DNA of 24,902 bases from Spirochaetota bacterium (GTDB taxonomy: Bacteria; Spirochaetota; UBA4802; JAFGJZ01). This document shows positions 3,579 through 21,971 of the stretch, piece by piece. The position numbers and the translations under genes were made by a program. Position 1 is the first letter of the stretch, and the number at the start of each line of letters is the position of its first letter. The notes under the pieces were generated by a model. The model was not told the DNA's origin and did not search any database. It saw nothing but the letters and a program-made list of their open reading frames with translations. The stretch is from assembly GCA_041306665.1 (NCBI GenBank), contig JBFZEW010000400.1, positions 1 to 24,902 of the forward strand, read 5' to 3'.

Positions 3579-3588
3579 TGTAATACCA

Positions 3589-4968: not shown

Positions 4969-4990
4969 TATATCTTCCGGAAATAAAAAT

Positions 4991-5013
4991 AAAAGTCCGT
5001 CTACCGGACTTTT
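4991..5013 (-). terminator. Intrinsic terminator downstream of the TetR gene
   Basis: Perfect 9-bp inverted repeat AAAAGTCCG (4991-4999) / CGGACTTTT (5005-5013) with a 5-nt loop. On the minus strand it is followed by a T-rich tract. Confidence 0.7.
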
Positions 5014-5081
5014 ACATGATATATAAATGTATTATATTTACAACTGTTTTTTAATACGGGATTTCTATTTAGAAATGAATT

Positions 5082-5690
5082 TTAATTCAGCATTCCATTC
5101 ATGTAGGAATCAACAACATCTTCGATAATTTTCGGAGAACTGACGTCAGTTTTGGTTTTCGAGTATTCATGAACAAGCATCAGAACTCCGCCGATAATTA
5201 TCAACGAACTGATGCGCGAATTATTCGCAGTTTTATAATATCCATGTTTTTTTAAATCGTCAATATCGCGTGAAATAACTTTTGAAACGTAATCAGTAAA
5301 CTTTGAAACTCTTTCAATAACTTCATCATCAATGCCGACGATTTCCTTAAACATCAGCTTAATTACAATGGGCTCGGAAATGAGTGTCTTAACACAGCGG
5401 GAAACGCGTTTATTTAAATAGACGATTACATCTTCCTTGGTGGATCCATCATTAATGAACTCGGCTAAATCATCGCGATCGAAAATATCATCAAGTTCTT
5501 CTTCAACACCTTCGAGTATCGCAAAAAGAATTTCTCTTTTGTTGCCGAAATATTGATAAACAGTCCCGCGCGCGATATCAAGTTCCGTACAAACCTCGCC
5601 GATATGCGTGCTCTGATAACCGCGCTCAATGAACATTTTTTTTGAAACATTGATTATTTCATCTTTACGCTTCTGGCCTTTTGCCGGCAT
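5082..5690 (-). CDS. TetR/AcrR family transcriptional regulator
   Basis: N-terminal HTH FIERGYQSTHIGEVCTELDIARGTVYQYFGNKREI; GGAG SD 7 nt upstream of the ATG. Confidence 0.92.
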   Translation of the reverse strand: MPAKGQKRKDEIINVSKKMFIERGYQSTHIGEVCTELDIARGTVYQYFGNKREILFAILEGVEEELDDIFDRDDLAEFINDGSTKEDVIVYLNKRVSRCVKTLISEPIVIKLMFKEIVGIDDEVIERVSKFTDYVSKVISRDIDDLKKHGYYKTANNSRISSLIIIGGVLMLVHEYSKTKTDVSSPKIIEDVVDSYMNGMLN

Positions 5691-5709
5691 TATTGATCTC
5701 CAGAGAAAG

Positions 5710-5841
5710 CTAAATAATTCTGTTATCTTTTTCCGATGAACGCACAGATTTTAACCGCTTTATCTCATCTGAAAGCGGAACAAGAAGTTCTTTCAGTTCT
5801 TTGATTAAAACATCTGCTTTTTCTCTTAGTTCAACACTCAT
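5710..5841 (-). CDS. Putative 43-aa small protein directly upstream of tetR
   Basis: Manual translation MSVELREKADVLIKELKELLVPLSDEIKRLKSVRSSEKDNRII*. Amphipathic-helix-like; fills the gap between the promoter and tetR. No clear SD. Confidence 0.4.
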   Translation of the reverse strand: MSVELREKADVLIKELKELLVPLSDEIKRLKSVRSSEKDNRII

Positions 5842-5852
5842 GTTTAAATAGA

Positions 5853-5917
5853 AAATAGACAATTGATTATTTATATTTACTTGTTTAATAATATTTTTTT
5901 AATCACATTATAGTCAA
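5853..5917 (-). promoter_or_regulatory. Candidate sigma70 promoter and palindromic operator for the small ORF-tetR unit
   Basis: Minus strand TTGACT (5917-5912)-N18-TATTAT (5893-5888). An imperfect palindrome AAATAgaCAATTGatTATTT (5853-5872, 16/20 symmetric) lies just downstream. Confidence 0.4.
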
Positions 5918-6003
5918 TAACTTTTTTTTATGAATAAAAAAATGATTATGTATTTTAATTTATTACTATGAAAATTATAAGGTAAGATTTACGAAATAAT
6001 CAA

Positions 6004-6276
6004 TTAAGCCCAGATTTCGCTCCTTTTTTCATATCCAAATTCATTTTTTGGCACATATTCTATGCCGGCAAGCATGTAAAAAAATCTTTTAATCGCTTCG
6101 AGATCCATTACAGCATCATCAATATTGTATTCTTTTTCATGTTTAGTTTTTTCCAAAGATATGTCTTCAGTTTTTTTAATTGTAGAAGAATTCATAATAT
6201 CAGTTTTCTGAATATTCCCGACACTGCTTTGGTTAATCTGGGGGATGAGTTCATTGATGTTAAGTTTGCTTTCCAT
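6004..6276 (-). CDS. Hypothetical 90-aa protein
   Basis: Strong SD (AAGGAGG) just upstream of the ATG. No family recognised. Confidence 0.75.
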   Translation of the reverse strand: MESKLNINELIPQINQSSVGNIQKTDIMNSSTIKKTEDISLEKTKHEKEYNIDDAVMDLEAIKRFFYMLAGIEYVPKNEFGYEKRSEIWA

Positions 6277-6307
6277 GACATACCTCCTTGTATGTTATCT
6301 ATTTATA

Positions 6308-6334
6308 TTATCGGTACAATATTAAAAGATTTAA
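6308..6334 (-). promoter_or_regulatory. Sigma28 (FliA)-like promoter
   Basis: Minus strand TTAA-N15-ACCGATAA (or TAAA-N14) versus the consensus TAAA-N15-GCCGATAA. The -10 box matches 7/8 and lies about 30 nt upstream of the ATG at 6276. Confidence 0.55.
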
Positions 6335-6519
6335 TGATTTTTTTTAAAAAAACATGATATTTTTGTACGCTACTTTCAGATAAAACCTAATAAACCTGCA
6401 TTTTATCAGATTACTTCAATTATAATTTAAACCGCAAAAAACTATAGCAATACAATCTTAACAATATATTTACATTTTAAACAGCATTTCAGCTTGAAAA
6501 AAATCTGCTTATATTTTAA

Positions 6520-7560
6520 ATGATAAGTATGAATAAAAAGAAAAAAATTGCGCTTCTCACAGCGGGCGGGGACTGCCCTGGATTAAATGCAGCTCTTAGA
6601 GGAGTCGGCAAAGCAGCCATACTGCAATATGACATGGAAGTAATCGGAATCAGAGACGGCTTTTCCGGACTCATCAATATGGACTTCTGCGAATTAAACG
6701 AGCAGGATTTATCAGGAATTCTTACTCTTGGCGGAACAATTCTAGGAACTTCACGGGAAAAACCGTTTAAAAATGCCAAAGCAAATGATTTTATAAAAAG
6801 CAAACCGGAAATAATTAAAGAAAACTATGAAAAGCTCGGCCTTGACTGTATAGTCTGTCTCGGCGGCAATGGAACAATGAAAACTGCTGAAAAACTTTCA
6901 CAGCTTGGACTGAATATAATCGGAATGCCGAAAACAATAGACAATGACGTCTGGGCGACTGACTTATCATTCGGATTTGATTCAGCATTGAACATTGCAA
7001 CCGAGGCTATTGACCGTATTCATACCACTGCAAATTCACACCGCAGAATAATGGTTGTTGAAGTTATGGGGCACCATGCCGGGTGGCTAACACTTTACAG
7101 CGGTATTGCCGGAGGCGGTGATTTAATTTTAATTCCGGAAATTGAATATGACAGCAAATCTATCTCCAGATATCTGACAAAAAGAGCAGAAAACGGAAAA
7201 CCATATTCTATAGTTGTTGTCGCAGAGGGAATAAAAAAGCCAAATAAAAAAAAGGCAGCTACTCATATTGCTGAAATTATCAACGAAGAAACCGGACTTG
7301 AAGCAAGAGAAACAATACTGGGTTACATTCAAAGAGGCGGATCTCCATCACCTTTCGACCGCGTACTTGCAACCCGGCTGGGTGCTGCAGCTGCTGAATC
7401 CATAAAAGATAATCATTTCGGCATAATGGTTGCGCTTCAGAATAATCATATTGTTCGTGTACCATTGAATGAAGTTTCAGGAAAAGTCAAAACAATTCCG
7501 GAAGATTTTAAACTTATTGAGCGCGCCCGCCAGATCGGTACCAGCTTTGGCGATGAATAA
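6520..7560 (+). CDS. pfkA: 6-phosphofructokinase, group III, probably ATP-dependent
   Basis: Motifs TAGGDCPGLNA, GGTILGTSR, GGNGT (Gly at the E. coli 104-equivalent), PKTIDND (Lys at 124), EVMGH and LGYIQRGG. The start could be the ATG at 6529. Confidence 0.95.
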   Translation: MISMNKKKKIALLTAGGDCPGLNAALRGVGKAAILQYDMEVIGIRDGFSGLINMDFCELNEQDLSGILTLGGTILGTSREKPFKNAKANDFIKSKPEIIKENYEKLGLDCIVCLGGNGTMKTAEKLSQLGLNIIGMPKTIDNDVWATDLSFGFDSALNIATEAIDRIHTTANSHRRIMVVEVMGHHAGWLTLYSGIAGGGDLILIPEIEYDSKSISRYLTKRAENGKPYSIVVVAEGIKKPNKKKAATHIAEIINEETGLEARETILGYIQRGGSPSPFDRVLATRLGAAAAESIKDNHFGIMVALQNNHIVRVPLNEVSGKVKTIPEDFKLIERARQIGTSFGDE

Positions 7561-7582
7561 CATTTATGACGGAGACTGATTT

Positions 7583-8299
7583 ATGAAATTCGTATGTCTG
7601 GTTAGACACGCCAAAGCAGAGAAAATCAAATCAGATGATTTCAGACGCAAACTCACAAACGAAGGAATACTTGAGGCTGAACTTCTGGGAAAAAGTCTGA
7701 AAAATGACGATTTTTTATGTGATCTGGTTATTTCAAGTAATGCTTCAAGAGCTCTTGAAACAGCTGTAATCATTGCAGAAACTCAAAATATAAAACAAAG
7801 GAAAATCCGGGTTGAAAATTCTCTTTATCAGGGAACAGGCATTGACACTTATTACAGACTGCTTAAAGAACTTGATAATTCCATCAATACTGTACTCATT
7901 TCAGGACATAACACGACATTAGACGCAGCAGCAAAAGACATGTGTCAGGAATATGACCGGCGATTAACTACAGCTGCCGCTTTCTGCATTGCGTTTAATA
8001 TTAGCAACTGGAATGAAATAACATCAGGAACAGGCACTGCATGTTTTTATAAATTCAATAAAAATAAAAACAAACTCGCAGACGATGAAAAGCGTTTCAT
8101 AGAAAATTTAAAAAACGAAACAACACTAAAAATTGAGAATATTTTCACGGACATAAATAAAACAATAATGTTTAACGACAGGAAAAACACAATAAATTCA
8201 ATTTTTAAAAGTACTGAGGAAATTTTTAAAAATTCTACAATAGTCACAATTCAGGATTTAACAATATTAAGAAATAATACGGGCATAAAAAATGAATAA
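7583..8299 (+). CDS. sixA: SixA-type phosphohistidine phosphatase with C-terminal extension
   Basis: Histidine-phosphatase motifs LVRHAKA, SSNASRALET and SGHN, plus about 75 extra C-terminal residues. Overlaps the ppk1 start by 8 bp. Confidence 0.82.
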   Translation: MKFVCLVRHAKAEKIKSDDFRRKLTNEGILEAELLGKSLKNDDFLCDLVISSNASRALETAVIIAETQNIKQRKIRVENSLYQGTGIDTYYRLLKELDNSINTVLISGHNTTLDAAAKDMCQEYDRRLTTAAAFCIAFNISNWNEITSGTGTACFYKFNKNKNKLADDEKRFIENLKNETTLKIENIFTDINKTIMFNDRKNTINSIFKSTEEIFKNSTIVTIQDLTILRNNTGIKNE

Positions 8300-10346
8300 T
8301 CATTTTATACCAAAAGAAATCAGCTGGCTGACTTTCAATGAAAGACTCCTCCAGGAAATGGAAGACAAAACAGTACCATTGATAAATAGAATTAAATTCA
8401 TGGGGATTTATTCCAGCAATCTTGATGAATTTTTTGAAGTACGGGTAGCTACTTTAAAAAGACTCGCGCTTCTCGGAAAAAAATCCGCTAAATTCATCAC
8501 TTATGATCCCAAAATAGTTCTTTCTGAAATCAATAAAATTGTTTTGAATCAGCATAAACGGTATGACAAATCATATGACACCCTGCTGAAAGAACTCGCG
8601 AAAAAAAACATTCACATAATAAATGAAAAAATGCTGAAAGGCAGTCACGAGGAATTTGTAAAAGAATATTTCAACTCCATTGTCCGGGCCCGGCTGTTCC
8701 CGGTTATTGTTGATAACCGTTTCAAATTACCTGCGCTTGATGACAGAGCAATTTACCTTCTGGTTCAAATGTATAAAAGCTGCAAACCGAATATGAAAAA
8801 ATACAGTCTAATTGAAATTCCTTCAGGCCAGCTGAACCGTTTTGTTATACTCCCGAAAATCAACCGCAAACAATATATCATTTTCCTTGATGATATTATC
8901 AGATATGGTTTGTCAAAAATTTACTCTTCTACAGGATTCGATTGTTTTGAAGCATGGGACATAAAAATTACCCGCGATGCTGAACTTGACATAAGTGATG
9001 ATTTTTCTGTAAGCTACATCCATAAAATCACAAAAAGTCTGAAAAAAAGGAAAGCTGGAAATCCGGTCAGATTGGGCTATGACGCCTCAATGCCGAAAGA
9101 AATGCTTTCGTTCCTTTTACGGAAAATAAAACTCACCGGCGAAGATACTGTCATAGCGGGCGGCCGTTATCACAATTTCAGGGACTTTATCGATTTTCCT
9201 GATCTTCTCCCTGAGAAAACAGACAAACCGAAACCGCCAATAAGACATAGAGACCTTTGTAACGCATCAAGCATAATAAATGTAATTGCAAAAAAGGATG
9301 TTCTGCTGAGCCTGCCATACCAGCCGTTCGATTATATTATTGATTTATTACGGGAAGCTTCTATCGATCCGAAAGTAAAATGCATAAAGATAACTTTATA
9401 CCGGATTGCAAAAATTTCTAATGTCGTAAATGCGCTGATCAACGCGGTCAGAAACAGAAAAGAGGTCATTGTTCTTTTAGAGCTTCAAGCCCGCTTCGAT
9501 GAAAAAAATAACATTCACTGGGCAAATGTTCTTCAGGAAGAAGGCGCAACCGTAATTTTCGGCATTGCAGGACTGAAAGTTCATTCAAAGCTCTGCATCA
9601 TTTCACGGGAAGAAAAAAATGACTCCATAAAACATTACTGTATTATCGGAACAGGAAATTTCAATGCAATAACCGCAAAAGTTTATACTGATCATTTTCT
9701 TCTTACATCTGACGAACGTATAACAAATGAAGTTCATCATATTTTTGAATTTTTCGAGAAAAACTATAAAGTTTTCAAATACAGGCATCTTCTGGTTTCT
9801 CCATTCACTGCCCGTGAAAAAATTTCATCCATGATTGATGCTGAAATGGAAAATGCATCAAACGGAAAACCTGCTTATATTGACTGGAAAATCAATAATT
9901 TTTCGGACATTGATATTATACATCAGCTTTACAAGGCAAGCAGAGCTGGCGTGAAAATCCGTCTAATAGTAAGGGGAATGTTTTCTCTTATTCCTGAAGT
10001 AGACGGTATGAGTGAAAATATCTCGGCACGCGGAGTAATAGACAAATATCTTGAACATTCAAGAGTTCTGTTTTTCTGCAACAATGGGAATGAATTATGC
10101 TACATTACATCTGCTGATATTCTTCCGCGCAATTTAAACTCCAGAATTGAAGTTGCATGCCCGATTTACAGCAAAGAAATCAAAAAAGAATTGCGCGATA
10201 TTTTCGAAATTCAATGGGCGGATAACGTCAAAGCCAGGGTTCATGATAAAGAGCAGAGTAACAATTATATTAAAGATGGAAACGTAAAAGTCCGATCACA
10301 AGAGGAAGTATATAACTACTTAAAAATTACGCATGAAGGAAAATGA
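8292..10346 (+). CDS. ppk1: Polyphosphate kinase 1
   Basis: Motifs KEISWLTFNERLLQE, SNLDEFFEVRVA, ELQARFDEKNNI, LKVHSKL (phospho-His), GTGNFN, YLEHSRV and SADILPRNLNSRIE. Confidence 0.97.
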   Translation: MNNHFIPKEISWLTFNERLLQEMEDKTVPLINRIKFMGIYSSNLDEFFEVRVATLKRLALLGKKSAKFITYDPKIVLSEINKIVLNQHKRYDKSYDTLLKELAKKNIHIINEKMLKGSHEEFVKEYFNSIVRARLFPVIVDNRFKLPALDDRAIYLLVQMYKSCKPNMKKYSLIEIPSGQLNRFVILPKINRKQYIIFLDDIIRYGLSKIYSSTGFDCFEAWDIKITRDAELDISDDFSVSYIHKITKSLKKRKAGNPVRLGYDASMPKEMLSFLLRKIKLTGEDTVIAGGRYHNFRDFIDFPDLLPEKTDKPKPPIRHRDLCNASSIINVIAKKDVLLSLPYQPFDYIIDLLREASIDPKVKCIKITLYRIAKISNVVNALINAVRNRKEVIVLLELQARFDEKNNIHWANVLQEEGATVIFGIAGLKVHSKLCIISREEKNDSIKHYCIIGTGNFNAITAKVYTDHFLLTSDERITNEVHHIFEFFEKNYKVFKYRHLLVSPFTAREKISSMIDAEMENASNGKPAYIDWKINNFSDIDIIHQLYKASRAGVKIRLIVRGMFSLIPEVDGMSENISARGVIDKYLEHSRVLFFCNNGNELCYITSADILPRNLNSRIEVACPIYSKEIKKELRDIFEIQWADNVKARVHDKEQSNNYIKDGNVKVRSQEEVYNYLKITHEGK

Positions 10347-11450: not shown

Positions 11451-11816
11451 ATGGATTTCTACTTGAAACTGTTAAAATGCCTTGGAGATCAAACAAGGAT
11501 CAGAATTCTCAGATTATTGATGGAATCAAAACTTGAACTCTGCGTTTGTGAAATCGTGGATTCACTTCAGATTCCATTTTACAGCATTTCAAAGCACATT
11601 AAAGAATTAAAAAACACAGGGATTTTGTCTGAATCCAGAAACGGAACATTCATCATGTACTCCATTGCCAAGGATGAAAATGAATTTATTACTAAAATCA
11701 TCGAGTTGATAAAAACCATTCCCGATGAAAACTTTTCTAGTGACATTACTTTACTCAAAAAAAGATTGGCAATCAGGGAAAACGGAAAATGCACAATAGG
11801 TCTCATTAAAAAATAA
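11451..11816 (+). CDS. arsR: ArsR/SmtB family repressor
   Basis: LGDQTRIRIL, the alpha3 As(III)-type site ELCVCEI, HTH SISKHIKEL and a further C-terminal Cys; first gene of the ars cluster. Confidence 0.92.
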   Translation: MDFYLKLLKCLGDQTRIRILRLLMESKLELCVCEIVDSLQIPFYSISKHIKELKNTGILSESRNGTFIMYSIAKDENEFITKIIELIKTIPDENFSSDITLLKKRLAIRENGKCTIGLIKK

Positions 11817-11839
11817 ATACCTGCGTTCATGGAGATAAA

Positions 11840-13014
11840 ATGAATAATATTAAAAAATTTTTTGTTATAACCTCAGTATTTGCCGGATTTTTTTTCATTC
11901 CTTTTAATTCAATGCGCATAAGTAACGCGGTAATGGAAGCTTTATTCATGACTCAAGAATACGCTCGTGACCATATATTGCTATGTCTGCTTCCCGCTTT
12001 TTTCATCGCCGGCGCAATCGGAAATTTCATCAGTCAGGGAGCGGTAATCAAATTTCTTGGCGCAAAAGCAAATAAGTTTGTCTCCTACGGAGTTGCTTCA
12101 GTTTCAGGATCAATTCTCGCGGTCTGCTCATGTACAGTTCTTCCTCTATTCGGCGGAATTTACAAACGCGGTGCGGGTCTGGGTCCGGCGATTTCTTTTT
12201 TATATTCAGGTCCCGCAATTAATGTTCTGGCTATAATAATGACCGCCAGAATTCTTGGACTTGAACTCGGAATCGCGAGAGCAATATCAGCAGTAATCTT
12301 TTCAATTGTAATCGGAATTATGATGCATTTCATTTTCATCAAAGAAGAAAATGCCCGCAACAAAGAACTTGAAATGATGATTCCTGAAGATGAAAATTCT
12401 AGTGGAAGAAAACTTTGGCAGACCGCCCTGAACATTGCCGCGATGATCGGCATCCTCGTTTTCGTTAACTGGGGCAAGGATGAATCCATGCGGTTCTGGA
12501 ATGTAATCTATAATTTTAAATATCATATAACTGCAGTTTTCGCCGTTCTGCTAGCGGTATCATTTATCCTGTGGTTCAGAAAAGATGAAATGAAATCATG
12601 GGTAAAAACAAGTTTCGAATTTTCATTGCAGATTATGCCGCTGCTGTTCGCAGGCGTCCTTATTGCCGGATTTTTACTTGGCCGCCCCGGACATGAAGGA
12701 ATCATTCCATCCCAATGGATTTCTTGCTTGTCGGAGGCAACAGCCTTTTTTCTAATTTGTTCGCTTCAATCGCGGGAGCATTCATGTACTTCGCAACGCT
12801 TACGGAAGTTCCGATTCTGCAGGGATTGATCGGCAGCGGAATGGGCAAAGGCCCGGCGCTCGCGCTTCTATTGGCCGGTCCGGCATTGTCGCTGCCAAGC
12901 ATGCTGGCAATTCGGAGTATGATTGGAAATAAAAAAACTTTCGTCTATGTATCGCTTGTGATTGTCATGTCGACAATTACCGGAATGACATATGGCGCGC
13001 TATTCGGAGCATAA
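11840..13014 (+). pseudogene. arsP: ArsP-like (DUF318/COG0701) permease split by a 1-nt frameshift near 12724
   Basis: The N-terminal part has AVCSCTVLPLF and FLYSGPAINV. The C-terminal part (LVGGNSLFSNLFASIAGAFMYFATLTEVPILQGL..GMGKGPALALLLAGPALSLPS) is in the -1 frame. Adding one T at TCT-TG-CTT restores a 391-aa ORF. May be a sequencing error. Confidence 0.8.
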
Positions 13015-13015
13015 C

Positions 13016-13504
13016 ATGTCATCTGTTATAATTCTTGCCGCATTTACATTTATCTGCCTGATAATTTCATTTTTTTCAGACAGGGAGAAAACCGGTATTG
13101 CATTAAAACGCGCAGCTACAATGCTTTTAAATCTGCTGCCGCCTTTTTTTACAATACTGATTCTCATAAGTCTGATTTTATATTTAGTGCCTCAGAGTTA
13201 CATGATTAAAATTTTCGGAAAAGAATCAGGCATAACAGGCATGATCCTTGCTGCAGCTGTAGGTTCAATATCACTAATACCCGGATTTATTGCATATCCG
13301 CTAAGCAGTATATTAATCAAAAACGGCGTAAGTTATTCCGTAATTGCTGTTTTCATCACAACACTCATGATGGTAGGTATAGTTACAATACCGATTGAAA
13401 GAAAATTTTTCGGAATTAAAATTACATTGATGCGTAATGGTTTAAGTTTCGCAGGAGCTTTGCTCATTGGCCTAACAATGGCAGTCCTGTGGAGTGTTAT
13501 ATGA
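13016..13504 (+). CDS. Half-size DUF318-like permease subunit A
   Basis: 162 aa from ATG 13016 (GGAG at 13006-13009, a better start than the track's 12992). Multi-TM with the motifs GSISLIPGFIAYPL and TIPIERKFFGIK. Confidence 0.8.
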   Translation: MSSVIILAAFTFICLIISFFSDREKTGIALKRAATMLLNLLPPFFTILILISLILYLVPQSYMIKIFGKESGITGMILAAAVGSISLIPGFIAYPLSSILIKNGVSYSVIAVFITTLMMVGIVTIPIERKFFGIKITLMRNGLSFAGALLIGLTMAVLWSVI

Positions 13505-14061
13505 AACAGTTTATTAAAAAAAATAAATTCGATTTAATGCTGCTTTTTTCGTTTATCACTTTCATCATATATTCACATTTAGTAAGTCACGCAGCCGGGA
13601 TCGAAATTGGAAATAATTTCGGAAAATTTTTCGTTGAAATGATAACATTTATTCCACTGATCTTCATTTTAATCGGGTTATTCGATGTATGGATTTCAAA
13701 GGAAAAAATTCAAAAACATATCGGGTATAATTCCGGAATTAAAGGCTCATTCTGGGTAATACTTCTTGCAATGCTTCAGGCCGGTCCGCTGTACAGCTCC
13801 TTTCCAGTCGCATATATCTTATGGAAAAAAGGAGCAAGCATCAGGAATATATTTATTTACCTTGGAGCATTTTCGACATTAAAAATTCCCATGCTTGCTT
13901 TTGAAATTACCTATCTCGGCCTCAAATTTTCACTACTGCGGACATTTATAACATTACCCGTTTTTATAATTATCGCACTAATAATGGAAAAAATATTAGT
14001 TATTACAGATTTCCGGGTTACAGATCCGGGGAAACAGGAGAAAAATAATGAACAAAATTAA
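13501..14061 (+). CDS. Half-size DUF318-like permease subunit B
   Basis: 186 aa from ATG 13501 (ATGA overlap with the previous stop, GGAG just upstream). Multi-TM with the motifs [11 protein letters not shown] and [13 protein letters not shown]. Confidence 0.8.
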
Positions 14062-14479
14062 AGTTTTATTCGTTTGTATTCACAATTCAGCGAGAAGCCA
14101 AATGGCGGAAAAATTTTTAAATGAACTTGGCGGAGAGAAATTCGCAGCTGAAAGCGCGGGCATCGAGCCGGGAGTTTTAAATCAAACTGTTGTTAAAGCA
14201 ATGATGGAGGCAGGATACGACATATCCGGTAACGCGACTAAATCTGTTTTTGATGTTTTTAAATCAGGAAAAACTTATGACTATGTTGTTACAGTGTGCG
14301 ATCCTGAAGCTGCAGAAAAATGTCCGCTCTTCCCCGGAATTGTTAAACGTGAACATTGGGGATTCAAAGATCCATCTTCATTCAAAGGCACAGATGAAGA
14401 AAAACTGAACTTTACAATAAAAATCCGCGATGAAATTAAAAGCAAAATTCAAGAATTTATTAAAAATACTGAGGAATAA
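14048..14479 (+). CDS. arsC: Thioredoxin-coupled (LMW-PTP-fold) arsenate reductase
   Basis: P-loop [14 protein letters not shown], resolving Cys pair [13 protein letters not shown] and HWGFKDP. Confidence 0.93.
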
Positions 14480-14481
14480 AA

Positions 14482-15546
14482 ATGGCAAAAGGAATTTCAT
14501 TTTTTGAAAAATACTTAACAGTCTGGGTCATGCTCTGCGTCGCGGCTGGGACATCTTTAGGAATATTTCTTCCGCAGATTCCCGTCTTTCTCAGCAAAAT
14601 GGAATACGCGCATGTTTCCATTCCGGTCGCGATTCTAATATGGCTTATGATTTATCCAATGATGCTTAAAATTGATTTTACTAGCATTGTGAAATCCATA
14701 AAACAACCAAAAGGACTTGCCATTACATTAACGACAAACTGGCTGATTAAGCCGTTCACAATGTTTGGTATTGCCTGGCTGTTTTTTTTCATAATCTTCA
14801 AACCATTTATATTGCCGGAAAACGCGAAGCAGTATCTCGCGGGAGCAGTGCTGCTCGGAGCCGCGCCGTGCACGGCAATGGTATTTGTATGGAGCTATCT
14901 GACAAAAGGAAACGCGGCATACACACTTGTTCAAGTCGCGGTAAATGATTTAGTTATTCTAATCGCGTTTGCACCCATTGTCGCTTTTCTGCTCGGATTA
15001 AGCGATATTATTATTCCTTTCGACACATTACTCCTATCCGTTCTGCTTTTCGTGGTTATTCCGCTGACTTTAGGATATTTAACGCGAATATGCATTATTA
15101 AAATGAAAGGCGAGGAATTTTACAACAACAGGTTTGTGCCGAAATTCAACGGAATTACGATAGCTGGATTGCTTGCAACGCTTATCATAATTTTTTCTTT
15201 TCAGGGCGAAACAATACTTAACAATCCTTTAGCAATTATTCTTATTTCAGTTCCATTAATAATACAAACATTCTTTATTTTCTACATGGCTTTTTTATGG
15301 GCGCGATTCTGGAAACTTCCTCATAGTATTGCCAGTCCAGCAGCAATGATCGGTGCCAGCAATTTCTTTGAACTTGCTGTTGCAGTAGCAATTTCATTGT
15401 TCGGATTAAATTCAGGCGCAACTCTTGCAACTGTTGTCGGTGTACTTGTCGAAGTCCCGGTGATGCTCACTCTAGTAAAAATTTCTAACAACTCAAAACA
15501 TTGGTTCAGTAAAGAAGTACTCGAAATGGCTGGAATTGATAATTAA
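14482..15546 (+). CDS. acr3: Acr3 family arsenite efflux transporter
   Basis: Motifs FFEKYLTVWV, GAAPCTAMVFVWS, GASNFFELAVAVA and VLVEVPVML. Confidence 0.95.
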   Translation: MAKGISFFEKYLTVWVMLCVAAGTSLGIFLPQIPVFLSKMEYAHVSIPVAILIWLMIYPMMLKIDFTSIVKSIKQPKGLAITLTTNWLIKPFTMFGIAWLFFFIIFKPFILPENAKQYLAGAVLLGAAPCTAMVFVWSYLTKGNAAYTLVQVAVNDLVILIAFAPIVAFLLGLSDIIIPFDTLLLSVLLFVVIPLTLGYLTRICIIKMKGEEFYNNRFVPKFNGITIAGLLATLIIIFSFQGETILNNPLAIILISVPLIIQTFFIFYMAFLWARFWKLPHSIASPAAMIGASNFFELAVAVAISLFGLNSGATLATVVGVLVEVPVMLTLVKISNNSKHWFSKEVLEMAGIDN

Positions 15547-16261: not shown

Positions 16262-16549
16262 ATGAGGGAAATTTTGAATAAACGAAAGGACATGGAATGC
16301 AGAGTTGGATGCGGAGCATGCTGCATTGCTCTTTCTATCAGTTCGCCATTACCGGGAATGCCAAACGGAAAAAAGGCAGGGGAAAGATGTATTAATCTGA
16401 AGAATGATTCAACCTGCAGTGTTCATGGAACTGATTTTTATCCCGAGGTCTGCAGAAATTTAACACCGCAAAAAGAAATGTGCGGTAGAAGTTTTGAAGA
16501 AGCTATGAATTATCTGAGCATACTGGAAAAGCTGACAAAACCTGATTGA
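16262..16549 (+). CDS. YkgJ/UPF0153 family Cys-cluster (CxxxCxxCC) protein
   Basis: CRVGCGACCIALSISSPLPGMPNGKKAGERC...C...C...C. The ATG at 16292 (MECRVGC) is an alternative start. Confidence 0.88.
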   Translation: MREILNKRKDMECRVGCGACCIALSISSPLPGMPNGKKAGERCINLKNDSTCSVHGTDFYPEVCRNLTPQKEMCGRSFEEAMNYLSILEKLTKPD

Positions 16550-16576
16550 CTCTTCCCTGGCCGGAGACTGTAAATT
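16546..16576 (+). promoter_or_regulatory. MerR-type long-spacer promoter
   Basis: TTGACT (16546-16551)-exactly 19 nt-TAAATT (16571-16576). The spacer CTTCCCTGGCCGGAGACTG is GC-rich with a weak TCC-N6-GGA dyad. It lies 30 nt upstream of a MerR-family gene. Confidence 0.8.
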
Positions 16577-16605
16577 TTCATTATACCATCAAGGAGAAAA
16601 CCTAA

Positions 16606-17409
16606 ATGTATTCAATTGGTGAATTTTCTTTAATTACAAAGCTTTCTGTTAAAACTCTCAGACACTACCATACTGAGAATATTCTTGATCCTGATTACAT
16701 CGATGAAGATTCAGGCTACAGGTATTACCGTGAAGCATCAATTCAAAAAGCTGAAATGATAAAAATGCTTCGCGACCTGGAATTTTCCATAAGTGATATC
16801 AGAGAAATTACCGAAAAATTTACCGACGACTCCGAGATTCTTCCGTATCTTAATTCACAGAAAGAAAAAATCAGAATGAAACTCGAAGAGTATGAAAAAA
16901 TTAATTTTTCCCTTGAAAGTATAATTAAAAACGCAGAGGAGAGAAAAATGAAAAAATCCTATTCAGACAAAGTTGTTGATAAAAATATCGGCGATTTTAT
17001 TTTTGCCGGCTACCGCTTCAAAGGCAGATACGATGAAGTCGGAAAAGCATTTTCAAAAATCGGGAAAGCCGCCGGCCGCTTTATAAACGGCAAAGCAATG
17101 TCGCTTTACTATGATGGAGAATACAGAGAAAGCGACGCGGATATTGAAGGCGGATTCCCTCTTAAAAAGGAAATCAGCAATCCGGAAATAAATTGCCGTG
17201 TTCTGAAAGGCGGTAAAGCGGCAACAATCATACATTCCGGTTCATATGACACATTAAGCGAGTCCTATAAAAAACTGTTTAATTATATTGAACAGAATAA
17301 AATTAAAACAGATCTTCCGGCACGGGAAATTTACATTAAAGGTCCGGGAATGATTTTCCGCGGCAATCCGGAAAAATATGTTACTGAAATTCAGATAATG
17401 TTTAAATAA
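16606..17409 (+). CDS. MerR family regulator with C-terminal GyrI-like ligand-binding domain (BmrR/EcmrR type)
   Basis: N-terminal YSIGEFS..LSVKTLRHYH...DSGYRYY, a coiled-coil linker, then a GyrI-like domain (ATIIHSGSYDTLSESYKKL, AREIY, YVTEIQI). Confidence 0.93.
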   Translation: MYSIGEFSLITKLSVKTLRHYHTENILDPDYIDEDSGYRYYREASIQKAEMIKMLRDLEFSISDIREITEKFTDDSEILPYLNSQKEKIRMKLEEYEKINFSLESIIKNAEERKMKKSYSDKVVDKNIGDFIFAGYRFKGRYDEVGKAFSKIGKAAGRFINGKAMSLYYDGEYRESDADIEGGFPLKKEISNPEINCRVLKGGKAATIIHSGSYDTLSESYKKLFNYIEQNKIKTDLPAREIYIKGPGMIFRGNPEKYVTEIQIMFK

Positions 17410-17416
17410 AACGGAA

Positions 17417-17452
17417 AAAGAAAAAGACGCTTTTCAAAGTGTCTTTTTCTTT
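17417..17452. terminator. Bidirectional intrinsic terminator between the MerR gene and the convergent membrane-protein gene
   Basis: AAAGAAAAAGACGC (17417-17430) pairs with GTGTCTTTTTCTTT (17439-17452), with one G-U pair and A/T tracts on both sides. Confidence 0.75.
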
Positions 17453-18141
17453 ATAATATAAATCCATATTGAAAATAAAAATCCAAAGCAAATAAGCTGT
17501 GACATCAAAACAGTCCACGAGTAATTAAAATATTTTGCTTCACCTAATGTATGAAACATCATTGACACGAAAAAGAAAAACCACATTATGTAAAATGATT
17601 TAATTAAAACATAACCAACACCGTAAAATAGACCCATGATAAACATTATCACAAACATTTCTACACCGAATTTTTTATCGATAAAAAATGATAATCCGCA
17701 GGCAGCTCCTGAACTGAACACAGGAACGATTATTTTCAAAATTTTTCCTGGCATCATTTCATCAAAAATCGATGGAATTAAATAAAAACAATACATTGTT
17801 ACACCAAATGACATTGGAACAAACAAAATCAGATATTTGATTATCTCTTCCAAGCCCGGTCTGTTTTTTATCACAAGTTCCAGATTGTTTTCGGAAAATA
17901 TTCCCGCCGTCGTAAAAAGAATTAAATATATTATACCGGCACTATATAATAATAATTTCACCGGATATTTCATTTTAATTCCAAACTTCCATACAATAAC
18001 TAATGGAATAAATACGCATGATAACATCAGATATAAGAATGTAAAAATTACGTTCCCTGCAATGCCTCCTGTAAAGACTGCGAGACCCCAGAAAAAAAGG
18101 TATGCTGTAAAACCTGAAAAAACTGCATAATTTTTATTCAT
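17434..18141 (-). CDS. Uncharacterised multi-pass membrane protein
   Basis: 235 aa with about 7-8 hydrophobic segments; overlaps the PadR stop by 8 bp. Faint resemblance to CPBP proteins (SMMFHT) but no EExxxR motif. Confidence 0.8.
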   Translation of the reverse strand: MNKNYAVFSGFTAYLFFWGLAVFTGGIAGNVIFTFLYLMLSCVFIPLVIVWKFGIKMKYPVKLLLYSAGIIYLILFTTAGIFSENNLELVIKNRPGLEEIIKYLILFVPMSFGVTMYCFYLIPSIFDEMMPGKILKIIVPVFSSGAACGLSFFIDKKFGVEMFVIMFIMGLFYGVGYVLIKSFYIMWFFFFVSMMFHTLGEAKYFNYSWTVLMSQLICFGFLFSIWIYIIKKKTL

Positions 18142-18679
18142 TTTTCTCTCCTTGAAATAATTTAATTACTTCATTGCACCATTTAATTTCAGCTTCTGTG
18201 TGAATTATTGAATGTCTAAATACAGCATCCGCTGTTTTTCTGTAATTTTCCGGAAGATACTTTAAAGTCAGTTTTCGGTGGTTTAAAATATATTTATGTT
18301 TATAATTTTCATTTTCCAGTTTTTTATTGAAATATTGAATCAGCCGGTTTTCCGAGTATTCATCTGCGAAAAATAAAATCACATCATCTTTATAAAAAAT
18401 ATTTTCATCCTGAATAAGAAGTTTTTCTAAAAGCTCATGAAACAAAGAAAGACCTCTTTTATTTATTGAAAAAACAATTATCTCTTTTTTTACCGGAGAT
18501 ATATCCTTTTCTGACTCGAGATACCCTTCTTCATGCAATTTTTCCAGATGATAATAAACATTTGAAAGTTTCACATTCACAAAATCAGAAACTTCGTTTG
18601 CTATTTTTTCTTTCAGTTCATACCCGTGCAATGGTCCGAAACGTTTCAGGAAACCCAGAATTACCAGTTTTAGTTCCAT
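18134..18679 (-). CDS. PadR family transcriptional regulator
   Basis: MELKLVILGFLKRFGPLHGYELKE...VYYHLEKLHEEGYL...FSINKRG winged HTH with a long C-terminal helical domain. ATG 18679 preferred over TTG 18685. Confidence 0.9.
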   Translation of the reverse strand: MELKLVILGFLKRFGPLHGYELKEKIANEVSDFVNVKLSNVYYHLEKLHEEGYLESEKDISPVKKEIIVFSINKRGLSLFHELLEKLLIQDENIFYKDDVILFFADEYSENRLIQYFNKKLENENYKHKYILNHRKLTLKYLPENYRKTADAVFRHSIIHTEAEIKWCNEVIKLFQGEKNE

Positions 18680-18691
18680 TTTCAACCTGCC

Positions 18692-18737
18692 ATAGTCAGT
18701 ACTGAATAAAATATAGTCAGGACTGAATATATGTCAA
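18692..18737 (-). promoter_or_regulatory. padR promoter with two tandem palindromic operators
   Basis: Minus strand TTGACA (18737-18732)-N16-TATATT (18715-18710). Two 17-bp copies, ATAGTCAG[T/G]ACTGAATA at 18692-18708 and 18713-18729, each with a TCAG-N2-CTGA core. Confidence 0.75.
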
Positions 18738-18872
18738 CTATTTATTATTTTTTTTAATCAAATTTATTTTACCGTACTATTGTATTATTTCGACTTGATA
18801 AGGTTTTGTATTTAATTTCTTTCAGGCTGTGCTTTCCTGCAATATTTACTGTTCATTATTCATTATTAATTA

Positions 18873-19562
18873 TTAATTGTTCATTGCCTCCCCATGTTTA
18901 TCCTGAACACTGCTTATGATACTTAGGAATAGAACCCAGAAACATACAATAACATTGAAAACAGGAATCTGAAGAGAAGCAGGAAAACAATAAATTATCG
19001 AAACTGACGGGATCCAGACCATCCATGTTGAAACAAGCAAAGAAGGTATTCTGAAATAAAAAAGCGATTTATTCATTTTAGTCTTAAGCTTTGTAAATGA
19101 GAAATCAGAATCCTTCCAAAGGTATATAATCATTATTGTCGGCGATGCCCATAGCGGATTATATACAAACTGGTCAAATATTACTTTTTTCGCAACAACA
19201 GAAACAACCTGCTCATTACCGAAAAAGAAACTTTGAAGTCTATACAACAGATCAACTTCAATGCCCCGATAGGTCCAGAAAAAAACGTAGAATAAAAATT
19301 CTTTCATTCTTTTACCCTGCGGAATTTTACCGGTAAATCTCAGATATAAAAATGGAATTATTCCTGCGAAAATTACCGTCGCGACTCCTGAATAAATAAA
19401 GCCATATCTGTCTTTCAATTCTGCTGCTTTATTAAAAATAATCGCGGCGGGAGGAACGAAATAGTATGCAGCAACAATAAAAATTCCTACGCAAATAAGA
19501 ACAACTCCAGGCAGAAGATTCGTTTTTACTCCATCAATAGTCACGCGGACAAATTTATTCAT
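18873..19562 (-). CDS. Mpv17/PMP22-family-like membrane protein
   Basis: The C-terminal half follows the family pattern: KKVIFDQFVYNPLW...STWMVWIP..IIYCFPASLQIPVFNVIVCFWVLFLS (KxxxDQxxxxP; WxxWxP; PxxxxxxxxNxxxxxWxxxLS). Confidence 0.75.
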   Translation of the reverse strand: MNKFVRVTIDGVKTNLLPGVVLICVGIFIVAAYYFVPPAAIIFNKAAELKDRYGFIYSGVATVIFAGIIPFLYLRFTGKIPQGKRMKEFLFYVFFWTYRGIEVDLLYRLQSFFFGNEQVVSVVAKKVIFDQFVYNPLWASPTIMIIYLWKDSDFSFTKLKTKMNKSLFYFRIPSLLVSTWMVWIPSVSIIYCFPASLQIPVFNVIVCFWVLFLSIISSVQDKHGEAMNN

Positions 19563-19599
19563 TTATCTTTCCAAATACTGTTTATTATTTTTATAAAGC

Positions 19600-19680
19600 T
19601 CAAGCTGACAATTCCGCATGAATAGAAAATGAAACCGCCGTAAAAACCATAAATGCGGCTGTTAATGATAATTTTTTCAT
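19600..19680 (-). CDS. 26-aa ORF consisting almost only of a Sec signal peptide (micropeptide or gene remnant)
   Basis: MKKLSLTAAFMVFTAVSFSIHAELSA*; AGGAG SD 7 nt upstream. Confidence 0.5.
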   Translation of the reverse strand: MKKLSLTAAFMVFTAVSFSIHAELSA

Positions 19681-19712
19681 ATTCATTCTCCTGTAATTTT
19701 TAAAAGCTGAAT

Positions 19713-20663
19713 TTAGAAAATGAGATAAGTCAAATAACCGCAATACGTCAGCAGTAAAAACACTCCTTCAGCACGGTTGATGCGAAAGCCTGAACGCATT
19801 ACTGGAAGAATTAAAACCGCTGTTCCAATCAGCACCAGCATGTCAACAATTCCGATTCCTGAAAACGTAATCGGGGTTAAAAGTCCCGTAAATCCAAGTA
19901 TTGCAAAAATGTTGAAAATGTTCGAACCGATAACATTTCCAATAGCAATATCTTCTTCGCGGCGGAAAGCCGCCAAGACGGAAGTTGCCAGCTCCGGAAG
20001 ACTTGTTCCTGCCGACACAATAGTAAGTCCGATTATTGTCTCAGATATGTTTAAAATATGAGCAATATCAACTGCTCCTTTTACAAAAAGCTTCGATCCG
20101 GCCACCAATAGAATTAATCCGCCGAAAATAAACGCGGCATTAAGCAGCATGCTTAACCAGTCTTTTCCCGGATTTTTTGCTTTTGAAGGAATTAAAACAT
20201 CATTATTTTCATTATTGTTATTTTTTCTTCCGAAATAAATCGAAAACACAACATAACAAATTATTCCCGCGAAAAGAAAAGCTCCCTCCATTCTGCTCAA
20301 TGTGCCGTCTAACAGCACCAGGCACACAATAAGAGTAGCTGCCATCATAATAGGTGCATCTATTCGAAGCACTTGTATGTTTACTTTCAATGGAGATATA
20401 ATTGCCGCGATTCCAAGAATTACGGCAATATTAAAAATATTCGATCCGACAACATTTCCTATGGCGATTCCTCCGATTCCTTTTAAACCCGAGGAAACAC
20501 TTACAACCATTTCAGGCGCGCTTGTTCCGAATGCGACAACTGTCAAACCGACGATAAGCGATGGAATTCCCATTGCTAGGGCCAGACGCGAACTTCCTTT
20601 TACGAGCCATTCAGCTCCAAAATAAAGAAAAATAATTCCCGCGATTATATAGATTATGTACAT
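19713..20663 (-). CDS. Calcium/sodium antiporter (CaCA, YrbG type)
   Basis: Two alpha-repeats, AFGTSAPE...GNVVGSNIFNI and SAGTSLPE...GNVIGSNIFNI. Confidence 0.95.
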   Translation of the reverse strand: MYIIYIIAGIIFLYFGAEWLVKGSSRLALAMGIPSLIVGLTVVAFGTSAPEMVVSVSSGLKGIGGIAIGNVVGSNIFNIAVILGIAAIISPLKVNIQVLRIDAPIMMAATLIVCLVLLDGTLSRMEGAFLFAGIICYVVFSIYFGRKNNNNENNDVLIPSKAKNPGKDWLSMLLNAAFIFGGLILLVAGSKLFVKGAVDIAHILNISETIIGLTIVSAGTSLPELATSVLAAFRREEDIAIGNVIGSNIFNIFAILGFTGLLTPITFSGIGIVDMLVLIGTAVLILPVMRSGFRINRAEGVFLLLTYCGYLTYLIF

Positions 20664-20858: not shown

Positions 20859-21971
20859 TCAGGAAAAAATTTTGTCAACGGAGTAATATTCAAGACCGAA
20901 CGCCGATGCCACATCTGGATAAGTGCATTTGCCGTCATAAAGATTTAATCCCTTTGCTATCGCGGTATTTTCCCTGCACGCTAAAATTGCTCCTTTATCA
21001 GCAATCTGCAGTCCATATCGCAAAGTTGTGCTCGTCAGCGCGTAAGTTGAAGTCAGCGCGACCGCTCCCGGCATGTTCGCTACGCAATAATGAACAATTC
21101 CTTCTTCAATGTATGTAGGATTATCATGCGTTGTCGGACGGGTTGTTTCAAAACATCCTCCCTGATCTACCGCGACATCGACCAATACTGTACCTTTTTT
21201 CATCAGTGCCAGATGTGACTTTTTAATCAATTTCGGCGCTTTTGCTCCAGGAATCAGAACAGCTCCGATTATCAGATCACTTTCCCTGCAGATGCGCTCA
21301 ATGTTGCTTTCAGTGCTGTAAAGCCCGGTAATTCGCGAGCCAAAAACATCATCAAGATAGGCGAGCCGAGCCGAACTGACATCGAGAACAGTAACTTCTG
21401 CTCCCATACCGGTCGCGATTTTACACGCGTTTGTTCCGACTACACCTGCTCCGAGAATCGCGACTTTTCCGCGGGCAACACCCGGCACGCCTCCCAGAAG
21501 AACTCCTCTTCCGCCGAATGTTTTTTCAAGATACTTCGCTCCTTCCTGAACAGCCAGACGGCCTGCGATTTCACTCATTGGAGTCAGACACGGAAGAGAT
21601 CTGCCCTCCATAATTGTTTCATATGCAATTGCGCAGATTTTTTTATCAAGCAGCTCACGGGTAAGTTTCTCATCAGCAGCAAGATGCAGATATGTATAGA
21701 GTATATGATTCTTTTTAAAATATGAATATTCCGAAGGCTGTGGTTCTTTTACTTTAATTATCATTTCACATTTATCAAATATTTCAGCAGCAGAGTTTAA
21801 AATTACAGCTCCAGATTTTTCATAATCACTGTCAGAAAATCCGGTTCCTTCACCTGCATTTTTTTCAACATATATTTCGTGCCCATGCGATACATAACTT
21901 TTTACGCAATCCGGCGTAAGCCCGACCCGGTATTCATGAGTTTTAATTTCTTTAACTGTACCGATTTTCAT
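20859..21971 (-). CDS. ald: Alanine dehydrogenase
   Basis: Motifs KEIKTHEYRVGLTP, IKVKEP, YLHLAA, MSEIAGR, GAGVVG, DVAVDQGGC and HYCVANMPGAV; GGAGG SD. Confidence 0.97.
   Translation of the reverse strand: MKIGTVKEIKTHEYRVGLTPDCVKSYVSHGHEIYVEKNAGEGTGFSDSDYEKSGAVILNSAAEIFDKCEMIIKVKEPQPSEYSYFKKNHILYTYLHLAADEKLTRELLDKKICAIAYETIMEGRSLPCLTPMSEIAGRLAVQEGAKYLEKTFGGRGVLLGGVPGVARGKVAILGAGVVGTNACKIATGMGAEVTVLDVSSARLAYLDDVFGSRITGLYSTESNIERICRESDLIIGAVLIPGAKAPKLIKKSHLALMKKGTVLVDVAVDQGGCFETTRPTTHDNPTYIEEGIVHYCVANMPGAVALTSTYALTSTTLRYGLQIADKGAILACRENTAIAKGLNLYDGKCTYPDVASAFGLEYYSVDKIFS

Follow-up and report, generated by a model that had tools for sequence, protein, structure and literature searches.

Profile comparison points to a six-helix bacterial membrane protein as a very distant relative of the Mpv17/PMP22 family

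Defects in MPV17 lead to mitochondrial DNA depletion, and the function of the protein itself is disputed, with its transported substrate, gating, and structure unsettled. Channel activity in bilayers has been found for every superfamily member so tested, namely PXMP2, Sym1, MPV17, and dMpv17 (PMC6767901; PMC10558772); the activity of the Mpv17 relatives has been reviewed (PMC6767901), with dMpv17 described in a separate report (PMC10558772). Among these relatives, documentation of a wide pore with weak selectivity is best for PXMP2 (PMC6767901). MPV17 is proposed to be composed of five helices, with its C-terminus in the matrix (bioRxiv 10.1101/2024.04.12.589178). Other eukaryotic members have non-channel roles, including Wsc and Pex37 in tethering and fission and MPV17L2 in ribosome assembly. 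Literature searches on bacterial Mpv17 homologues turned up nothing, in agreement with the statement in a first-pass annotation of the present locus that no functional characterization of bacterial members was known.

The gene described here (hereafter the target) lies in a window of 24,902 nucleotides, the whole stretch of Spirochaetota DNA that was analyzed. The features of the locus are as follows.

18873 to 19562, minus strand: target gene, encoding a 229-aa six-helix protein assigned to the inner membrane (ORF call, homologues, hhalign, and AF2 model).
19440 to 19562, minus strand: residues 1-41 of the target, positively charged N-terminus and extra helix TM0 (start of the hhalign register, AF2 helix 2-35, conservation, and K+R counts).
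18903 to 19439, minus strand: residues 42-220, five-helix core aligning with MPV17 residues 3-175 (hhalign and AF2 models).
18921 to 19046, minus strand: residues 173-214, the sole stretch matched by Pfam PF04117, with a sub-threshold score, at positions 20-62 of the 62-position profile.
19584 to 19611, minus strand: sigma-70-like promoter match (TTGTCA, 16 nt, AATAAT; 10 of 12), a consensus match only.
19600 to 19680, minus strand: putative 26-aa small ORF with its stop codon, MKKLSLTAAFMVFTAVSFSIHAELSA, signal-peptide-like, with AGGAG 7 nt upstream.
19713 to 20663, minus strand: YrbG-type Ca2+/Na+ antiporter (CaCA) of 316 aa, its alpha-repeats carrying GTSAPE and GTSLPE (PF01699, TIGR00367).

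The 229-aa ORF is a real gene, found on the minus strand where the first-pass annotation had placed a membrane protein, and 41 homologues were recovered at E ≤ 1e-34. At E ≤ 1e-3, the family comprises 1303 representative clusters (clustering at 50% identity), 475 of which remain at E ≤ 1e-30. It was found in 196 species genomes and occurs in at least 196 bacterial species from at least nine phyla, including the cultured Cellvibrio sp. OA-2007, Agaribacterium haliotis, Desulfopila sp. IMCC35008, and Desulfosediminicola flagellatus. The sole label carried by these proteins in the source databases is "hypothetical protein," a search of NCBIfam with the target gave no match, and an exact search for the target protein in the assembly index returned no record. 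The family alignment contains 16 invariant columns. Long members were checked for domain fusions and none was informative, with no fused enzymatic or soluble domain among them. The protein was suggested at first pass to be a prokaryotic homologue useful for tracing the origin of Mpv17, but the clade also contains eukaryotic members (Paulinella and contigs bearing eukaryotic genes) and therefore cannot simply stand as "the prokaryotic homologue" in origin tracing.

By Pfam alone, the resemblance of the target to Mpv17/PMP22 is not above chance. The PF04117 profile search that had been proposed as a check gave 14.7 bits and an E-value of 0.033 over residues 173-214; the gathering cut-off of 27 bits was not reached, so the target fails Pfam's own membership test. 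The same weak match was obtained for 37 of 40 family members (E 1.1e-4 for the best of them), and PF04117 was the only Pfam family that these 37 matched. Precomputed PF04117 annotation was present in none of the 41 relatives. Profile-profile comparison gave a different picture. With hhalign, the target alignment (A1) matched 65 Mpv17/Sym1 sequences at 96.1% probability and E 3.2e-9 over 172 columns, in a register that pairs target residues 47-227 with MPV17 residues 8-176 and thus covers nearly all of MPV17. Larger sets of 155 family and 187 Mpv17/Sym1 sequences gave 97.1% probability, E 5e-11, and a score of 77.5. The homology claimed at first pass is therefore upheld at the superfamily level but not as Pfam membership, and these alignments identify the target as a real yet very distant relative of Mpv17/PMP22.

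Compared to MPV17 and Sym1, the target shares a collinear profile alignment across the whole of MPV17 and the motifs DQxxxxP, WxxW(x)P, PxxxQ/R, and NxxxxxWxxxLS. The motifs quoted in the first-pass annotation are present at residues 126-214, as K126-x3-D130-Q131-x4-P136, W180-x2-W183-x-P185, and N203-x5-W209-x3-L213-S214, the last with spacing identical to that of yeast Sym1 (N-VVAIF-W-NTY-LS). The signature set was scored in MPV17 numbering as G30-D31, R50, D92-Q93, P98, N134, W138-P139, Q142, N145, P150, W165-N166, and L169-S170. Of this set, the target keeps D130-Q131, P136, W183-(I)-P185, P194, W209, and L213-S214, together with a basic residue (K84/R85) near the position of R50. The common motif positions include Q93, P98, and S170, residues affected in human disease. 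The differences are also substantial. Identity to MPV17 is only 12-18%, and several residues invariant in Mpv17/Sym1 are lost, namely G30-D31 (I69-P70 in the target) with the helix-1 GD(V/I)xxQ motif, N134 (T179), Q142, N145, and N166 (V210). The target family in turn has invariants that MPV17/Sym1 lack, including a signature of its own, EVDxxYRxQ, as well as K126, Q198-x-P200, and C207; its invariant core residues are G100, Y107, R108, Q110, K126, D130, Q131, W183, P185, Q198, P200, and C207. MPV17 and Sym1 are organellar, whereas the target is assigned to a bacterial cytoplasmic membrane. PXMP2/PMP22, Wsc, and Pex37, compared here by description only, belong to the same superfamily, from which the same fold would follow; unlike the target, they are peroxisomal, have four or five helices, and are found only in eukaryotes.

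The AF2 models of the target (pLDDT 92.7, pTM 0.87; helices 2-35, 37-76, 82-114, 120-151, 156-190, and 195-228) and of MPV17 (pLDDT 92.7; helices 2-13, 15-38, 48-76, 82-111, 116-148, and 151-174) share five helices, one for one, under the hhalign register, and the target has one more at its N-terminus. This helix (TM0, residues about 1-41) is without counterpart in MPV17, as the hhalign register begins at residue 42-47, and P18, G19, L22, and Y33 within it are conserved across the family. The "extra N-terminal helices" of the first-pass annotation are thus a single transmembrane segment. Mean K+R counts were 3.5 for the N-terminus, 3.0 for loop 1-2, 3.9 for loop 3-4, and 2.0 for the C-terminus, against 0.2 and 0.0 for loops 2-3 and 4-5. 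The six-helix protein is predicted to have both ends in the cytoplasm. In this arrangement, the core would, owing to the extra helix, begin on the periplasmic side and end with a cytoplasmic C-terminus, which would correspond to the matrix-side C-terminus of MPV17 and to its proposed orientation in the inner membrane of mitochondria.

Foldseek searches of BFVD returned the same best-TM match, M1I2L4, for both models, with a TM of 0.73 (probability 1.0) for MPV17 and 0.59 for the target, the latter non-significant (E 2.7). M1I2L4 was the sole BFVD entry with a target-normalized TM above 0.5 for the 229-aa protein, and the MPV17 model also matched a named viral Mpv17/PMP22 protein. The structural connection of the target to the family, running through this entry, is an indirect one. 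These viral proteins (M1I2L4 and A0A2P0VP22 of Tetraselmis virus 1) differ from the target in being 144-147 aa in length and in coming from algal viruses. A text match to "Mpv17" in an algal-virus paper did not refer to the protein but to the virus MpV1, with a citation number run on to its name. Foldseek against PDB gave a best E of 0.6 with TM below 0.25, leaving the target without a solved counterpart, and no chain was found in PDB sequence searches with the single target protein or with profiles of the target family and of Mpv17/Sym1.

We consider it moderately probable, as a joint explanation, that the target is a six-helix protein of the cytoplasmic membrane on a distant branch of Mpv17/PMP22, encoded by a stand-alone gene and most likely forming an oligomeric gated pore. 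By analogy with MPV17, Sym1, dMpv17, and PXMP2, its likeliest function would be that of a gated channel in the inner membrane, in which an oligomer would let small solutes or ions through a pore of weak selectivity. The polar invariants E102, D104, R108, Q110, K126, D130, Q131, and Q198 are predicted to lie in the half of helices 2, 3, and 5 that faces the periplasm, where they may contribute to the lining of the pore or to a binding site. The protein may have a role in ion, osmotic, or membrane-potential homeostasis. A wide pore in an energized bacterial membrane would require tight gating.

The upstream neighbor of the target is a CaCA exchanger, as described at first pass. It matches PF01699 in two stretches (E 1.1e-63) and TIGR00367 with 261.7 bits, above the curated cut-off of 179.65, and it resembles YrbG-type members in its two Na_Ca_ex repeats, its GTSxPE motifs, and its length of 316 aa. 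It differs from E. coli YrbG in falling under the equivalog cut-off for that protein (229 vs 432 bits). The antiporter is co-oriented with the target and separated from it by 150 nt. The "micropeptide" noted between the two genes is in place, within a region at 19600-19743, and is best read as 26 aa, a 47-aa version with a TTG start being less likely. A tblastn search of 151 related loci with the 26-aa peptide gave no match, a result to which the shortness of the peptide lends little weight. The RNA record across the gap consists of one short metatranscriptome contig (19629-19877), which covers part of the small ORF. No terminator was predicted in the 150-nt gap, folding of the two flanking intergenic regions gave z-scores of 0.40 and 0.77 and hence no RNA structure, and scanning the window for Rfam families and tRNAs returned nothing. 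Sigma-70-like sites in the region number 16, no more than in shuffled sequences (14.6).

Three other explanations were weighed against this reading. That hydrophobic helices resemble those of Mpv17/PMP22 only by chance or through their composition, and that the family is an unrelated fold, would agree with the PF04117 match below threshold, with the non-significant Foldseek E-values, and with the 23.5% probability that hhalign gave against a narrow vertebrate-only MPV17 alignment, which became significant only after fungal Sym1 diversity was added. The controls, however, place the profile-profile resemblance far above chance, as the score of 77.5 compares with 15.7 for the reversed alignment, at most 21.4 for 20 column shuffles, and 15.3 and 20.9 for two unrelated polytopic families, CaCA and TauE. 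The alignments are moreover collinear over 168-172 columns spanning all five helices, reciprocal hmmsearch reached all 187 sequences of one set and 153 of the 155 of the other, with scores of up to 35-40 bits, and the shared motifs (DQ, P, W-P, W, and LS) coincide with residues that are invariant in each of the two families, all of which makes a chance likeness exceedingly improbable. A homologue that forms no pore and acts instead as a specific secondary carrier, a membrane-bound enzyme, or an organizer of membrane complexes is unlikely. The intrahelical invariants E102, D104, R108, K126, D130, Q131, Q198, and C207 equally resemble a binding or catalytic site, the known roles of Wsc, Pex37, and MPV17L2 offer eukaryotic precedents, and wide pores endanger an energized bacterial membrane. 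Against it stand the channel activities of PXMP2, Sym1, MPV17, and dMpv17 in bilayers (PMC6767901; PMC10558772), the lack of enzymatic or soluble domain fusions among the longer family members, and the lack of a conserved partner gene.

The third explanation, in which the target and the antiporter, perhaps with the 26-aa peptide, form one unit of transcription and function for cation homeostasis (the target could, for example, serve as a leak or shunt pathway balancing antiporter fluxes), corresponds to the "apparent unit" of the first-pass annotation. It draws on the co-orientation, the 150-nt gap without predicted terminator or significant RNA structure, the metatranscriptome contig that reaches from the 3′ end of the CaCA gene 84 nt into the gap, and one preprint tying MPV17 to mitochondrial calcium handling. 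Co-oriented ion exporters also lie at times upstream of family members elsewhere: two Desulfobulbales have MntP there, one spirochaete has a heavy-metal P-type ATPase, and nine Cellvibrionaceae have TauE. Against the joint unit, transporter neighbors number four in about 19 independent contexts, which exceeds chance marginally at most. The same contig ends at 19629, short of the start codon at 19562, and a promoter-like site precedes the target. Neighborhood analysis of the bacterial homologues, also proposed at first pass, did not bear out the antiporter link, as a CaCA gene was present in 0 of 84 target-family loci (up to 8 kb on each side) and the target family in 0 of 67 loci of CaCA homologues (up to 4 kb on each side). 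The gene upstream of the closest homologue (54% identity), although it also encodes 316 aa, is unrelated to CaCA and was rejected as conserved synteny. No gene cluster recurred in more than 10 of the 84 loci; TauE, TypA, and ferrochelatase were recurrent in Cellvibrionaceae only, and most immediate neighbors were unrelated (sulfatases, Dus, DHFR, PfkB, ThuA, and an esterase). A joint unit is therefore quite improbable. The target is probably a stand-alone gene, and its place beside the antiporter and the small ORF is probably incidental and peculiar to this genome.

A more far-reaching proposal, which we regard as doubtful, is that the Mpv17/PMP22 channels of eukaryotic organelles have in the six-helix clade their prokaryotic sister group, or the source from which they came, and that this clade acts in the bacterial inner membrane as a large pore gated by voltage or stress, in loose cooperation with cation exporters (CaCA here; MntP, P-type ATPase, and TauE elsewhere). 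If true, this clade would provide the first bacterial model, open to genetics and structure determination, for a disease-linked family whose function is disputed and whose structure is unsolved.

The 62-residue PF04117 model of Pfam overlooks a whole branch of more than 1300 clusters, all of them labeled hypothetical at present. A clade common to bacteria and protists adds a further data point on the origin of organellar channels. Furthermore, the presence of a conserved homologous family in cultured bacteria should allow easy expression, genetics, and possibly structure determination.

All of the Mpv17/PMP22 motifs quoted in the first-pass annotation, which had proposed a bacterial channel of that type, were found in the 229-amino-acid protein encoded in the window. 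In the hmmscan check suggested there, PF04117 matched the protein with 14.7 bits (E 0.033) over residues 173-214 only, below the gathering threshold of 27, and the protein is formally not a member of this curated family. The weak match is systematic: PF04117 was found at E<=1 in 37 of 40 relatives (best E 1.1e-4), and a Pfam scan of these 40 gave no other recurring family. In profile-profile comparison, the family gave a marginal result against a vertebrate-only MPV17 alignment (E 8.6e-4, probability 23.5%) and a probability of 96.1% (E 3.2e-9, 172 columns) against a diverse alignment of 65 Mpv17/Sym1 sequences, which pairs residues 47-227 of the window protein with residues 8-176 of MPV17. 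Comparison of 155 family members with 187 Mpv17/Sym1 sequences reached a probability of 97.1% (E 5e-11, score 77.5); the controls scored 15.7 (Mpv17 alignment reversed), at most 21.4 (20 column shuffles), and 15.3 and 20.9 (CaCA and TauE, unrelated polytopic families from the same data). The family HMM matched 187 of 187 Mpv17/Sym1 sequences at up to 35 bits, and the Mpv17/Sym1 HMM matched 153 of 155 family members at up to 40 bits. The human MPV17 and yeast Sym1 queries were both confirmed by database matches named Mpv17/SYM1 and carrying PF04117. By these sequence profiles and their controls, the proposed relationship is established at the superfamily level, although it falls short of the Pfam threshold; the window protein is almost certainly homologous to Mpv17/PMP22. 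This kinship is remote, and within the known superfamily the protein sits in a six-helix branch that carries no annotation.

An AlphaFold2 model of the window protein, built with the family alignment as input (pLDDT 92.7, pTM 0.87), has helices at 2-35, 37-76, 82-114, 120-151, 156-162/165-190 and 195-228. MPV17, modelled likewise (pLDDT 92.7), has helices at 2-13, 15-38, 48-76, 82-111, 116-148 and 151-174, and in the hhalign register the modelled helices pair one for one. The extra N-terminal helices described earlier reduce to one, the first helix (residues 1-41), which has no MPV17 counterpart. Family-wide, lysine and arginine cluster at the N-terminus (mean K+R 3.5), in loop 1-2 (3.0), in loop 3-4 (3.9) and at the C-terminus (2.0), and are almost absent from loops 2-3 and 4-5; under the well-established positive-inside rule, this distribution predicts six helices with both termini cytoplasmic. 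In bacterial terms, the predicted topology matches the orientation that has been proposed for MPV17, and the helix correspondence agrees with a preprint that gives MPV17 five helices, with the N-terminus facing the intermembrane space and the C-terminus facing the matrix (10.1101/2024.04.12.589178).

Foldseek of the model against the PDB returned nothing (best E 0.6, TM <0.25), and PDB chains searched with the family profile and the Mpv17/Sym1 profile matched neither, so there is no experimental structure for comparison. In the viral model library BFVD, the only match of the window protein with TM >0.5 was M1I2L4 (target-normalised TM 0.59, rmsd 5.2, E 2.7). The MPV17 model matched M1I2L4 and a "putative Mpv17/PMP22 family protein" of Tetraselmis virus 1, both with TM 0.73 and probability 1.0. 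This modelled link through M1I2L4 is indirect and statistically weak, and fits the sequence result. Algal giant viruses encode short Mpv17/PMP22-like proteins of 144-147 amino acids (BFVD A0A2P0VP22 and M1I2L4), one of which is the best structural match common to the MPV17 model and the window protein.

Family members bear only the name "hypothetical" or none in the source databases. By exhaustive profile search, the family numbers 1303 representative clusters at E<=1e-3, of which 829 remain at E<=1e-10 and 475 at E<=1e-30, and a relative is encoded in 196 genomes of a one-per-species set. The distribution is broad yet sparse: carriers include Verrucomicrobiota, Spirochaetota, Myxococcota, Cellvibrionaceae, Planctomycetota, Fibrobacterota, Cytophagales, Desulfobulbales and one Solirubrobacteraceae genome, with Cellvibrio sp. 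OA-2007, Agaribacterium haliotis, Desulfopila sp. IMCC35008 and Desulfosediminicola flagellatus as the cultured carriers. Furthermore, the six-helix clade is not purely bacterial. One member, P0124, comes from Paulinella micropora, and two long members lie on contigs (L152, 8001-9254; L153, 6001-8061) whose neighbouring genes are plainly eukaryotic (a PH-kinase-PTEN protein, type IB topoisomerase, tectonic); all three have long disordered tails or loop insertions and appear as single uninterrupted open reading frames. Long members in general carry Ser/Pro/Thr-rich tails or loop insertions and tend to match each other best (~36-52% identity), while still sharing ~40% identity with bacterial members.

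The first-pass annotation had also placed the gene in an apparent unit with a Ca/Na antiporter. Its observation was confirmed and its interpretation supported in part: the Mpv17/PMP22 relationship stands, and the operon link is not supported. The open reading frames are co-oriented on the minus strand as follows, in transcription order:

20859-21971, minus strand: alanine dehydrogenase, the first gene
19713-20663, minus strand: CaCA exchanger, 316 amino acids (PF01699 and TIGR00367)
19680-19600, minus strand: small open reading frame, most plausibly of 26 amino acids (MKKLSLTAAFMVFTAVSFSIHAELSA), with AGGAG 7 nt upstream
18873-19562, minus strand: the 229-amino-acid protein, downstream of the small open reading frame
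18134-18685, minus strand: PadR regulator, after a 187-nt gap that holds a strong promoter-like site
17434-18141, minus strand: 235-amino-acid membrane protein without a family match, overlapping the PadR gene by 8 nt

By sequence, the CaCA assignment is unambiguous: PF01699 matches twice (E 1e-63), the TIGR00367 "calcium/sodium antiporter" model gives 262 bits where its cut-off is 180, and the sequence contains the GTSAPE and GTSLPE repeats. The 26-amino-acid product looks like a bare signal peptide; a search for comparative support for it found none.

Synteny fails in both directions. Homologues of CaCA, PadR and alanine dehydrogenase occur in none of 84 family loci (<=8 kb each side), and all 67 CaCA-homologue loci (<=56% identity; <=4 kb each side) lack the family. 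In the closest homologue (54% identity) the upstream gene also encodes 316 amino acids, yet is unrelated to CaCA. No neighbour family recurs in more than 10 of the 84 loci, and immediate co-oriented neighbours are mixed (sulfatases, Dus, DHFR, PfkB kinase, ThuA, esterase). Some of these neighbours are ion exporters: in nine Cellvibrionaceae (loci L026, L040, L043, L045, L053-L055, L061 and L065; about 7160-7965 in L053) a TauE/SafE-type permease precedes the family gene at a gap of 0-45 nt, two Desulfobulbales have the Mn2+ exporter MntP in front of it, and one spirochaete has a heavy-metal P-type ATPase there (loci L072, 7342-7923; L079; L008, 1055-3325). With the window's CaCA, transporters account for 4 of roughly 19 independent contexts, which may reflect a loose association with ion exporters or chance, and is a lead rather than evidence.

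The 150-nt gap between CaCA and the 229-amino-acid gene contains no predicted terminator and no significant RNA structure (z 0.40); a promoter-like site lies at 19611-19584, and such sites are no commoner in the region than in shuffles. The window originates from a soil or wetland metagenome. The sole matching metatranscriptome contig (from sequencing run X5; 19629-19877, ~96% identity) spans the CaCA 3' end and most of the small open reading frame, and ends 67 nt ahead of the start codon of the 229-amino-acid gene. Its nine differences from the window all fall within the 54 nt of 19708-19761, which include the CaCA stop codon, and the flanks of 79 and 116 nt are identical; the antiporter C-terminus is thus locally variable. 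Overall, the 229-amino-acid gene probably stands alone.

Past its stop codon, A/T-rich short repeats (AATAATTAATAATGAATAATGAA) occupy 18846-18889, a strain-variable or assembly-unstable spot where contigs of soil metagenome run X1 break or diverge (several loose ends, one odd joint). A near-consensus promoter (TTGACA, 16 nt, TATATT; 11/12) precedes the PadR gene and is followed by two copies of ATTCAGTNCTGACTAT 21 nt apart (18728-18713 and 18707-18692; site 18692-18737), the second containing the palindrome CAGTACTG; the site resembles a putative PadR operator. Converging on the PadR unit from the plus strand (16262-17409) are a 95-amino-acid CxxCxxCC-type putative metal-binding protein, just under the Pfam threshold, and, following it, a MerR-family regulator that carries a GyrI-like ligand-binding domain. 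An arsenic-resistance-like cluster at 11451-15546 comprises an ArsR-type HTH protein, an ArsP_1 permease, an ArsC-like low-molecular-weight phosphatase and an SBF/ACR3-type carrier; ArsP_1 matches extend over four overlapping or adjacent open reading frames (11840-12829, 12715-13014, 12992-13504 and 13489-14061), which suggests frameshifts or a permease duplicated and split. Housekeeping genes at 1935-10346 encode glutamine-dependent NAD synthetase, a HEAT-repeat protein, a TetR regulator, phosphofructokinase, a histidine phosphatase and polyphosphate kinase 1. Neither tRNA genes nor Rfam matches were found anywhere in the window.

Taken together, the analysis showed that the window encodes a conserved membrane protein of six helices, with homology to MPV17/Sym1 extending along the entire core. 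Recombinant PXMP2, Sym1, MPV17 and dMpv17 form pores with a width of ~1.4-1.8 nm, which shut at high voltage (PMC6767901; PMC10558772). By analogy, the window protein could form an oligomeric, gated, weakly selective pore; in a bacterial membrane that is energised, such a pore could not do without gating. The family-invariant residues are G100, Y107, R108, Q110, F114, G115, K126, D130, Q131, W183, P185, Y191, L197, Q198, P200 and C207; the polar ones, in the predicted periplasm-facing halves of helices 2, 3 and 5, are candidates for lining a pore or a binding site. A role as carrier, enzyme or organiser competes seriously with this reading, given that the family's charged signature EVDxxYRxQ is absent from canonical Mpv17. 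The pore reading is best held tentatively, at a little under an even chance.

The relationship is a distant one, and none of these results bears directly on function. Within these limits, to a disease-linked family with no solved structure and a disputed function, the six-helix branch brings bacterial and protist handles.
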